A stretch of DNA of 11,915 bases, from the IMG/VR virus record IMGVR_UViG_2671180012_000001. One strand, written 5' to 3'. Positions 2,776 through 2,965 of this stretch are shown one piece after another; position 1 is the first letter of the stretch, and each line of letters begins with the position of its first letter. The DNA is from a virus. Lineage: Duplodnaviria; Heunggongvirae; Uroviricota; Caudoviricetes. Below the pieces are notes generated by a model. The model worked only from the letters and a program-made list of their open reading frames with translations. It was not told the origin of the DNA and searched no databases. The translations under genes were made by a program, and so were the position numbers.

Positions 2776-2796
2776 TTCTGAAACTCCTAATCATCG

Positions 2797-2874
2797 GTGT
2801 GTTTCAGTATACACAAAAAAAGAAATACAAAAAGCCTTGACGTGTGTTTCATGCGCTCATAACATGAAACACAC
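2797..2874. promoter_or_regulatory. Divergent promoter/operator region between the RHH gene and the rightward operon
   Basis: Rightward promoter: -35 TTGACG (2837-2842), 17-bp spacer, -10 TAACAT (2860-2865). It overlaps a perfect 12-bp inverted repeat GTGTGTTTCATG (2842-2853) / CATGAAACACAC (2863-2874). A third copy of the half-site GTGTGTTTCA lies at 2797-2806 and overlaps a leftward extended -10 (minus-strand TGTGTATACT, reverse complement of 2806-2815) upstream of the RHH gene. Confidence 0.5.
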
Positions 2875-2965
2875 CGAAAGGATTGTTGAAATACAAAGAG
2901 CAACGCCCCGCAGTGCTGGGAACACATACGGGGCGTCTAACCAACAACGTAAACTAGGAGCCGTT

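Follow-up and report, generated by a model that had tools for sequence, protein, structure and literature searches.

The locus considered here, positions 2776-2965 of the 11,915-nucleotide (nt) viral record IMGVR_UViG_2671180012_000001 (the whole stretch is called the window below), raises the question of whether the replication operon of a Gram-negative phage-inducible chromosomal island (PICI) is governed by a dedicated protein repressor. Gram-negative PICIs have been described as AlpA-centred, with a global repressor 'unclear' (PMC6092414) and with AlpA essential for induction (PMC6092414; bioRxiv 10.1101/2022.09.08.507074), and a repressor is likewise absent from later papers on helper-embedded and capsid-forming PICIs. 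A prior inspection of the letters alone (the sequence-only reading) had noted that such islands are usually described as AlpA-controlled, which matches PMC6092414, and had proposed an autoregulating ribbon-helix-helix repressor acting on the replication operon from operators at divergent promoters. The results of this study suggest that 2776-2965 is probably the immunity switch of a Gram-negative PICI, with the leftward gene at 2470-2775 (−), an open reading frame (ORF) confirmed at 101 amino acids (aa), encoding a putative ribbon-helix-helix repressor of the replication operon. The core of the earlier proposal gained strong support from comparative evidence, namely the covariation of protein and sites, and further support from the predicted fold, and its arrangement of binding sites had to be revised.

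Sites and protein were compared for covariation across 99 loci from about ten genera. The divergent loci came from E. coli genomes, from other genera (Photorhabdus, Yersinia, Scandinavium, Pantoea, Lelliottia, Xenorhabdus, Citrobacter, Cronobacter, Enterobacter and Salmonella) and from IMG/VR (80 loci), with one further locus on a contig labelled Pseudomonas; individual loci are cited by L numbers. A single-protein search of genome contigs gave seven loci, and an alignment query gave no confirmed locus. Site offsets and promoter conservation were measured in 19 loci relative to the rightward −35 element, the leader hairpin was compared in 21 distinct leaders, and its U-rich tail was checked in 20 leaders. 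In total, 195 homologues of the repressor were found in IMG/VR, and a tblastn search with the repressor against 50,697 phage genomes returned no match.

A phased array of sites at divergent promoters

Three exact copies of the 10-mer GTGTGTTTCA are located at the divergent promoters, at 2797-2806 (+), 2842-2851 (+) and 2865-2874 (−), and the sequence occurs nowhere else in the 11.9-kb window. Chance repeats were rejected as an explanation because only 0.03 copies are expected, and none of 200 shuffles reached three; the three copies reported in the sequence-only reading are therefore real. Two of them fall within a perfect 12-bp inverted repeat (2842-2853/2863-2874) that extends imperfectly to 26 nt at 81%, and a 13-nt perfect complement pairs 2794-2806 with 2865-2877.

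The inverted repeat, as had been described, brackets the −10 element of a rightward promoter. This promoter comprises the −35 element TTGACG (2837-2842, +) and the −10 element TAACAT (2860-2865, +), with a predicted start at about 2872, and the combination TTGACG-17-TAACAT scores 9 of 12 and is the sole sigma-70-like match in 1 kb. The TTGAC is invariant in A1 and near-invariant in the 19 loci, the TAnnnT pattern of the −10 element is kept in all 19, and in the relatives the TAnnnT lies 17-18 bp downstream of the conserved TTGAC. The rightward promoter is therefore supported by the conservation of its −35 and −10 elements. For the leftward promoter, the candidate −10 element is TATACT (2811->2806, −), with a predicted start at about 2799, and the repressor gene has a Shine-Dalgarno sequence, AGGAG (2784-2788, −), 8 nt before its ATG. 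In most relatives, a [T]ATA[CG]T-like block has been kept beside the first site (S1, below). The suggestion that a third half-site overlies an extended −10 of this promoter did not survive inspection: TGTG directly abuts TATACT and is not a canonical TGn extended −10, and S1 does not lie on the −10 itself, sharing one base with it and covering the predicted start. In every locus collected, a small gene diverges from an Icd-like gene that leads into the replication operon.

Measured from the rightward −35, repeated 9-mers were found in the 19 loci at −39/−40, −16/−17, +5/+6, +28/+29 and +50, amounting to up to five sites with a phase of 22-23 bp, two of which are degenerate in the window. S1 (2797-2806, +) is a perfect GTGTGTTTCA at about −7 to +3 of the leftward promoter, and S2 (2821-2830, −) is degenerate (AGAAATACAA, minus-strand TTGTATTTCT, 7 of 10 positions matching) and is located at about −31 to −22 of the same promoter. 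S3 (2842-2851, +) and S4 (2865-2874, −) are both perfect copies of GTGTGTTTCA, at −31 to −22 and −8 to +2 of the rightward promoter, respectively. S5 (2887-2896, −) is again degenerate (TGAAATACAA, read as TTGTATTTCA, 8 of 10) and lies at about +15 to +24 of the rightward transcript. Good sites are present at the S2 position (−16/−17) in L004, L008, L009, L019, L020 and L021, and at the S5 position (+50) in L009, L019, L021 and L022, so that relatives such as L009, L019 and L021 carry five good sites; the degenerate form of S2, GAAATACAA, is itself kept in E. coli, Photorhabdus and Citrobacter. The layout is a mirror image, with S3 and S4 bracketing the rightward −10 and S1 and S2 bracketing the leftward −10.

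The orientation of the sites varies by lineage (-> <- -> <- <- in the window, -> <- -> -> -> in L021) while their position stays constant. Because of this, each site would be a self-contained unit rather than half of one palindrome. Of the half-site reading, the three copies stand, and the single palindrome is replaced by five units at 22-23 bp.

Some loci have a further element in this region. A perfect DnaA box, TTATCCACA, occurs just downstream of S4 in L010, L011 and L013, with an 8/9 match in L008, and no DnaA box was found in the window. The box is followed by a conserved block (..CCACAGGTAAAGCACAGG), located between S4 and the leader hairpin whatever the operator class.

Covariation of the putative reading strand and the sites

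Across the comparison set, residues 25-101 of the protein are nearly invariant, and variation is confined to residues 3-24, where it falls into discrete classes. Each strand class (residues 11-15) is matched by a site core of its own, and all copies within a locus have changed together; ten such classes were found, the same class goes with the same core across genera, and Arg16 and Pro18 are invariant throughout. The invariant TGT/GTG start of the site goes with the invariant Arg16. The strand QLTTV is paired with TGTGTTTC in nine distinct intergenic sequences (E. coli, Photorhabdus and Citrobacter), and QLFTV is paired with the same core in L009. KQISI goes with TGTGATTC in E. coli, Yersinia and Cronobacter, QMTT[IV] with TGTA[TC][AC]TC in 11 of 12 distinct sequences, and QSLTA with TGTAAG[AC]C in six distinct sequences (operator TGTAAGCC). 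The remaining pairs are QSVTA with TGTAA[GT].. in L013, QMIST with GTGTAG[GT]C in L022, and Q[IM]KN[VI] with GTGTGCAT, GTGTGTAT, GTGTATAT or TGTGTACA in L006, L010, L011 and L023. Within a class the sites are kept and the spacers diverge, as seen when the window, L007 and L018 are compared.

The site class is independent of the other candidate binding proteins of the island. L003 and L004 encode an identical AlpA (WP_001206975.1) and have different site classes; the window and L003 share a class and differ in their Icd-like and replication proteins; and L004, with a primase, has the same site class as L005, with a RepA helicase. Therefore, none of AlpA, the Icd-like protein and the replication protein is the binding partner. 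Judging from these alignments, linkage alone does not account for three to five scattered copies changing in concert, and the pattern suggests that the DNA is read by side chains of a putative β-strand.

A predicted ribbon-helix-helix domain in the YlcI/YnfO family

The product of 2470-2775 belongs to the YlcI/YnfO family (NCBIfam YlcI_YnfO_N, E 1.6e-17), the only family above its cut-off and one without an assigned fold; literature searches on YlcI/YnfO, DUF3950, ribbon-helix-helix proteins with PICIs, and the EcCICFT073 repressor found no functional description. In the AlphaFold model, an extended segment (residues 10-18) leads into two helices (19-28 and 35-52), after which come a linker of lower confidence and a long helix at 59-100. 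The N-terminal domain of the model (about residues 10-52) matches the ribbon-helix-helix fold, an N-terminal strand and then two helices, and is joined through residues 53-58 to the C-terminal helix (59-100), which has pLDDT values up to 96 and matches only generic coiled coils. According to hhalign, the RxPx[ED]V junction is in register with that of Arc and Mnt, and residues 12, 14 and 16 would thus face the DNA. The reading strand is unpaired in the models, which are monomer predictions. Two UniRef relatives are named 'Arc-like DNA binding domain-containing', and a sub-threshold match to PSK_trans_fac was present in 43 of 56 family members, whereas sequence and profile searches of the PDB found no ribbon-helix-helix protein.

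Additional features of the family were noted. The invariant C-terminal part (..SSLDALAKVEQIGIKAAEEIGQLV..; residues 45-101, window 2470-2640) is a single helix in the AlphaFold model and weakly Hef-like in the profile search. A 59-aa short form of YlcI/YnfO, consisting of the N-domain only (L016, 2198-2941; L017, 2162-2536), has the same divergent layout, and the short-form loci carry a repeat of their own, GTGGCTGACA, three times. In L016, the short form stands beside isrK and C4 RNAs upstream of the Icd-like gene; since this locus has both, protein and RNA immunity are not mutually exclusive.

The leader hairpin and a proposed antisense RNA

The GC-rich stem-loop that the sequence-only reading had placed in the leader before the first rightward ORF is present (ACGCCCCG, 2903-2910, pairing with CGGGGCGT, 2929-2936) and is conserved in 21 of 21 distinct leaders, including that of an O55:H7 island without the repressor gene. 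Its pairing, however, is preserved on the opposite strand and not in the leader mRNA. In the outer stem, 28 of 189 alignment cells are mispaired on the plus strand, all of them A·C or C·A, whereas the minus-strand equivalents pair in 189 of 189 cells. Over the minus-strand alignment, 98.8% of cells are paired, many of them as G·U, and six pairs are changed on both sides; the covariation score was 0.409 versus 0.165 for shuffled alignments (matched by none of 500), and slid controls reached at most 52.5%. The alifold energy was −22.9 for the minus strand versus −12.9 for the plus strand, and the minus-strand RNA of the window folds at −34.7 kcal/mol with a z of −3.95, compared with a z of −1.17 for the plus strand. 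The minus-strand helix has 16 bp with one bulge and a 3-nt loop, followed by UGCUCUUUGUAUUUC, and a U-rich tail is found in 20 of 20 leaders; on the plus strand no U-tract follows the hairpin. Because pairing is kept on the minus strand and not on the plus strand, the hairpin is taken to act on the minus strand, where hairpin (2902-2937) and U-rich tail (2901-2887) together (2887-2937, −) are proposed as an intrinsic terminator forming the 3' end of an antisense RNA. The minus-strand U-tract is interrupted, and a simple terminator scan did not call the hairpin.

A weak candidate promoter for such an RNA was located at 2979-3007 (−), with a −35 element TTGTGT (3007->3002), a 17-nt spacer, a −10 element TATGAT (2984->2979) and a start at about 2972. 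In each of the 21 leaders, a minus-strand TAnnnT is found to the right of the hairpin at a distance of 40-46 nt, although the Icd-like ATG moves by 11 nt (between 28 and 39 nt). The −35 element is not conserved, and scoring gave inconsistent −35 elements and two competing positions. From these sequence features, we judge the chances evenly balanced that an antisense RNA of about 80 nt runs from about 2972 to about 2890, over the ribosome-binding site and start of the Icd-like gene, and ends at the hairpin.

A different explanation, which we consider rather unlikely, is that the stem-loop serves as a plus-strand structure of the mRNA leader or as a protein-bound DNA palindrome. It would account for the location of the stem-loop in a 94-nt leader, 30 nt before the Icd-like start, and it has a parallel in the sense-strand hairpin that P4 and L016 carry at the equivalent place after the CI/C4 RNA; the flanking TCTAACCA is conserved, and scoring yielded no consistent minus-strand promoter. 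A structure working in the mRNA is difficult to reconcile with A·C and C·A mispairs on the very strand that would have to fold, with energies and z values that favour the fully paired minus strand, and with a U-rich tail confined to that strand, and if a protein recognised the palindrome, a preference of G·T to A·C in a single direction only would not be expected. A C4/CI-type RNA was also considered for the leader hairpin and was dropped for lack of an Rfam match; neither the hairpin nor the putative antisense RNA matches any Rfam family.

Several further observations concern the leader. A megablast breakpoint falls at window position 2893 and fits a separate 'hairpin plus icd' module; rightward of it, leader plus icd is found with other left-hand partners. 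A block of 8-9 nt adjoining the hairpin, TCTAACCA (+) or GGUUAGA (−), at 2937-2945 is almost invariant in 20 leaders from many genera, despite being non-coding and not part of the helix; within the proposed antisense RNA it could serve as a seed, for processing or for the binding of a protein. A small AACG/CGTT hairpin (2946-2965) encloses the Icd-like Shine-Dalgarno sequence AGGAG (2956-2960), its counterparts in relatives enclose or abut theirs, and compensatory changes between loci are visible by eye (AACG/CGTT, CGTTA/TAACG, CGATA/TATCG and TGTAA/TTACA). Inside the Icd-like ORF, a terminator-like hairpin, CACACAAACGGCCTTTGTGTG followed by GCGTTTTCTG (3001-3031, +), is also present in L002; by analogy with early termination in P4, it may act as an attenuator of rightward transcription ahead of the replication genes. 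Overall, six terminator-like sites are found in 2300-3300, compared with 1.2 expected.

Weighing the alternatives

Several points limit or weigh against the interpretation as a repressor switch with an antisense RNA. The match to the rightward promoter is not significant when taken alone, with shuffles giving a mean of 1.3 such matches, and the leftward promoter is without a recognisable −35 and was not called by the promoter scan. For the antisense promoter, only TAnnnT is conserved, and the hexamer lies in coding sequence, over an [NQ]H[TI] motif. At the protein level, no curated Pfam ribbon-helix-helix cut-off was reached (PSK_trans_fac, 16 bits versus 28.3), and the C-terminal part weakly resembles the helix-hairpin-helix of Hef in a PDB profile search (E 0.005). 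Among ribbon-helix-helix repressors, sites that stand 22-23 bp apart and vary in orientation are unusual, and the linkage between the 5' end of the gene and the operators could in part reflect a co-inherited recombination module.

Three other explanations of the sites themselves were weighed. A replication origin in which they act as iterons for the primase or initiator is suggested by the 22-23-bp phasing, by the A/T-rich DNA adjoining the repeats, by the DnaA boxes (TTATCCACA in L010, L011 and L013; 8/9 in L008) and by the ori repeats of P4, which lie near PLE/PLL. We regard this as extremely unlikely, given that the same sites occur with unrelated replication proteins (the D5 primase of the window and the DUF927 protein of L003; the primase of L004 and RepA of L005) and different sites with similar primase genes (L002 versus L004), and that the sites track residues 11-15, sit on promoter elements and are not accompanied by a DnaA box in the window. 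It is very unlikely that the protein is the antitoxin of a type II pair with the 59-aa ORF at 2233-2412, regulating its own operon alone, the overlap with the rightward promoter being incidental. The similarity to PSK_trans_fac, weak but frequent, and the small ORF running in the same direction in several loci would suit such a pair, whereas searches of Pfam, NCBIfam and PHROGs linked the 59-aa ORF to no toxin family, the ORF is not annotated in L004, the 59-aa short form of the repressor has the same promoter layout, and the two best sites of the window, S3 and S4, bracket the −10 of the rightward promoter, not that of the repressor gene, in a geometry kept in 19 of 19 loci.

The binding of another regulator (AlpA, the Icd-like protein, or a host or helper protein), with the rightward promoter under activator control, is likewise highly improbable. 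AlpA is the only demonstrated regulator (PMC6092414; bioRxiv 10.1101/2022.09.08.507074), and PHROGs label the Icd-like family 'transcriptional repressor'. Against this, an identical AlpA is found with two classes (L003 and L004), the Icd-like N-termini of L003 and L004 are near-identical although the site classes differ, the window and L003 share a class although their Icd-like proteins differ, and a host factor cannot account for at least ten site classes. The label was plausibly inherited from the P4 'cI' ORF, the immunity of P4 being RNA, and the location of the sites over the spacer and start of a −35/−10 promoter points to repression and not activation. The preferred reading therefore remains that of sites bound by the YlcI/YnfO-family protein itself.

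Proposed mechanism

In the repressor model, dimers would insert a two-stranded β-ribbon into the major groove of 9-10-bp (G)TGTGTTTCA sites, with residues 11-15 setting specificity, residues 12 and 14 facing the DNA and Arg16 invariant, and the C-terminal helix would link dimers at neighbouring sites about two helical turns apart. Occupancy of S3 and S4 would shut off the rightward promoter and with it the operon from the Icd-like gene to the primase, and occupancy of S1 and S2 would provide negative autoregulation, expected to be weaker in the window, where S2 is degenerate; S5 would lie in the early transcribed region. As a second layer, the antisense RNA of about 80 nt would cover the Icd-like start and ribosome-binding site and end at the 2937-2902 hairpin. 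Repression might be lifted by the helper or the Bro-N antirepressor, or by AlpA-driven read-through of int-alpA-bro, antisense through the repressor gene and onward to the replication operon, in a manner resembling PLL versus PLE in P4.

A wider version of this model is offered more tentatively, and we hold it to be somewhat less probable than its converse. In it, immunity in the Gram-negative and helper-embedded PICIs of this lineage would have two layers, the strand and its five operators would be exchanged as a cassette, and at least ten orthogonal types across Enterobacterales would decide which satellites exclude one another. The antisense small RNA, with the conserved hairpin as its terminator, would block translation of the toxic Icd/Kil-like first gene, the two layers would replace the CI RNA of P4, and AlpA would act upstream of or around the switch and would not be the sole regulator.

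The island and its genes

The island is approximately 10.7 kb long with most genes in one direction. It begins with an integrase (1-1242), AlpA (PF05930; 1244-1501) and a Bro-N protein (1558-2136, +), followed by a basic 59-aa ORF (2233-2412, −) downstream of the proposed YlcI/YnfO-family repressor gene (2470-2775, −; 101 aa), which runs on the opposite strand. The rightward operon starts with the 65-aa Icd-like protein (2966-3163, +) and continues, tightly packed or overlapping, through three small ORFs, DUF4222 (3772-4071, +) and a D5/P4-type primase (4068-5822, +), the part after the Icd-like gene spanning 3156-5822 (+). After the primase come SSB, major capsid, decoration, a helix-turn-helix gene and terS.

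The integrase, alpA and primase genes run in the same direction, and head and packaging genes are present without tail or lysis genes, as in PICIs. In E. coli CFSAN018748, a near-identical island interrupts a lambdoid prophage within its portal gene, and window 1-10946 aligns to that locus at 98.6%, into the 3' portal fragment and up to a gap of 10 N; the island of the window is likewise embedded in a prophage portal gene. From its integration in a late gene and its gene content, the element is therefore a helper-embedded PICI of the type described by Tommasini et al. (PMC10111431). Part of the 800-bp switch region is present in 1136 of 5426 complete E. coli genomes.

At the right-hand end (the 10723-11078 region; L001, 18299-19072), the 3' portal part is followed by 10 N (10947-10956), a tRNA-like sequence (−) and mtfA, and the window appears to join two contigs across the 10-N gap. 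The tRNA-like sequence (about 10957-11040) resembles tRNA-Ser by eye and is interrupted by the gap; a scan of the window with ARAGORN found no tRNA, the 3' end of the tRNA-like sequence being masked. On the left, alpA and the repressor gene flank the Bro-N 'anti-repressor' gene, which converges with the repressor gene, and relatives carry AntA, ORF6N or nothing at this position. The 59-aa ORF at 2233-2412 has no match in Pfam or NCBIfam, and in PHROGs its single match is the unnamed phrog_21027; L002, L003, L005 and L006, but not L004, have a comparable small ORF in their annotation, and the ORF of the window is possibly co-transcribed with the repressor gene.

The first rightward ORF matches NCBIfam phage_ICD_like (E 1.2e-17), and PHROGs call phrog_1743 and phrog_6196 (Icd-like) 'transcriptional repressor', where the old 'cI' ORF annotation of P4 is the plausible source (window 2966-3163; P4 8168-8584).

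Implications

Switches built from ribbon-helix-helix repressors and their operators are textbook material. New or unusual here would be a repressor in Gram-negative PICIs, a hypothesis for the function of YlcI/YnfO, the five-site array and a hairpin outside any Rfam family. A dedicated repressor would explain the silencing of a replication operon that starts with a Kil/Icd-like gene, would define immunity groups among co-resident satellites, and makes the target of helper-phage inactivation directly testable. For the YlcI/YnfO family, which counts among the E. coli 'y-ome', it would also be the first proposal of a function. Additionally, about ten natural repressor/operator pairs on one scaffold, differing by about five residues and about four bp, are attractive for orthogonal circuits, and the family is attractive for studying the recognition code of ribbon-helix-helix proteins.

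Comparison with known systems

In operon content, the switch resembles P4, where PLE is followed by the CI RNA (Rfam C4) with seqA/isrK, by kil/eta and, further on, by the alpha primase. The 65-aa ORF that follows the CI RNA of P4 belongs to the same phage_ICD_like family (E 1.6e-21); it is kil, and small ORFs and the alpha primase follow it (PMC10111431). BLASTP of the window Icd-like protein against the P4 'cI' ORF and the P4 65-aa ORF gave nothing, and the relation is visible only through the NCBIfam model. Both elements have a 65-aa Icd-like first ORF, small ORFs and a P4/D5-type primase, with int and an alpA-like gene upstream and immunity located in the leader. C4 (8420-8507 in P4, L014) and isrK RNAs were found in P4 and in the island L016, whereas Rfam gave no match, C4 and isrK included, for the whole window at E<=1 and none for ten long-form loci at the gathering threshold. 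The immunity of P4 is RNA-based and works by premature termination; here, the same operon position and content without C4 or isrK suggest that a divergent protein repressor with operators stands where P4 has RNA immunity.

In position and logic, the switch matches Stl (Rpr) of Gram-positive islands, a repressor that is divergent from the excision and replication operon and holds the island quiescent (PMC6092414). Stl differs in being a helix-turn-helix protein of an unrelated family that is inactivated by specific helper-phage proteins, and Gram-negative islands require AlpA.

The immI region of phage P22, known from work of the Susskind and Sauer laboratories, combines the ribbon-helix-helix repressors Mnt and Arc, the divergent promoters Pant and Pmnt and the antisense RNA sar. 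As proposed for the window, the gene of a small ribbon-helix-helix repressor and the operon under its control diverge, and operators lie over both promoters; Mnt likewise joins an N-terminal ribbon-helix-helix domain to a C-terminal helical oligomerisation domain; and sar, a short antisense RNA facing the ribosome-binding site of the first gene under repression, is comparable to the one proposed for the window. The two systems have no detectable sequence homology (hhalign probability 1-7%; Mnt 1.1% over 14 residues), and Mnt binds one symmetric operator of 17 bp, whose half-sites are separated by a helical turn, in contrast to five sites of variable orientation at 22-23 bp. Where P22 has an antirepressor, the island operon has genes for an Icd-like protein and for replication, and the element is a satellite, not a phage.

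Two further ribbon-helix-helix proteins resemble parts of the arrangement. Dimers of the Omega repressor of pSM19035 bind short repeats in direct or inverted orientation, as the variable orientation of the sites implies here, but the Omega repeats are contiguous heptads with a 7-bp period, without a divergent pair carrying a phased five-site array. NikR uses a separate oligomerisation domain to span two sites that lie about two helical turns from each other, as is proposed for the C-terminal helix of the YlcI/YnfO-family protein, but it is a metal sensor with an ACT-like central domain and also has no phased five-site divergent array.

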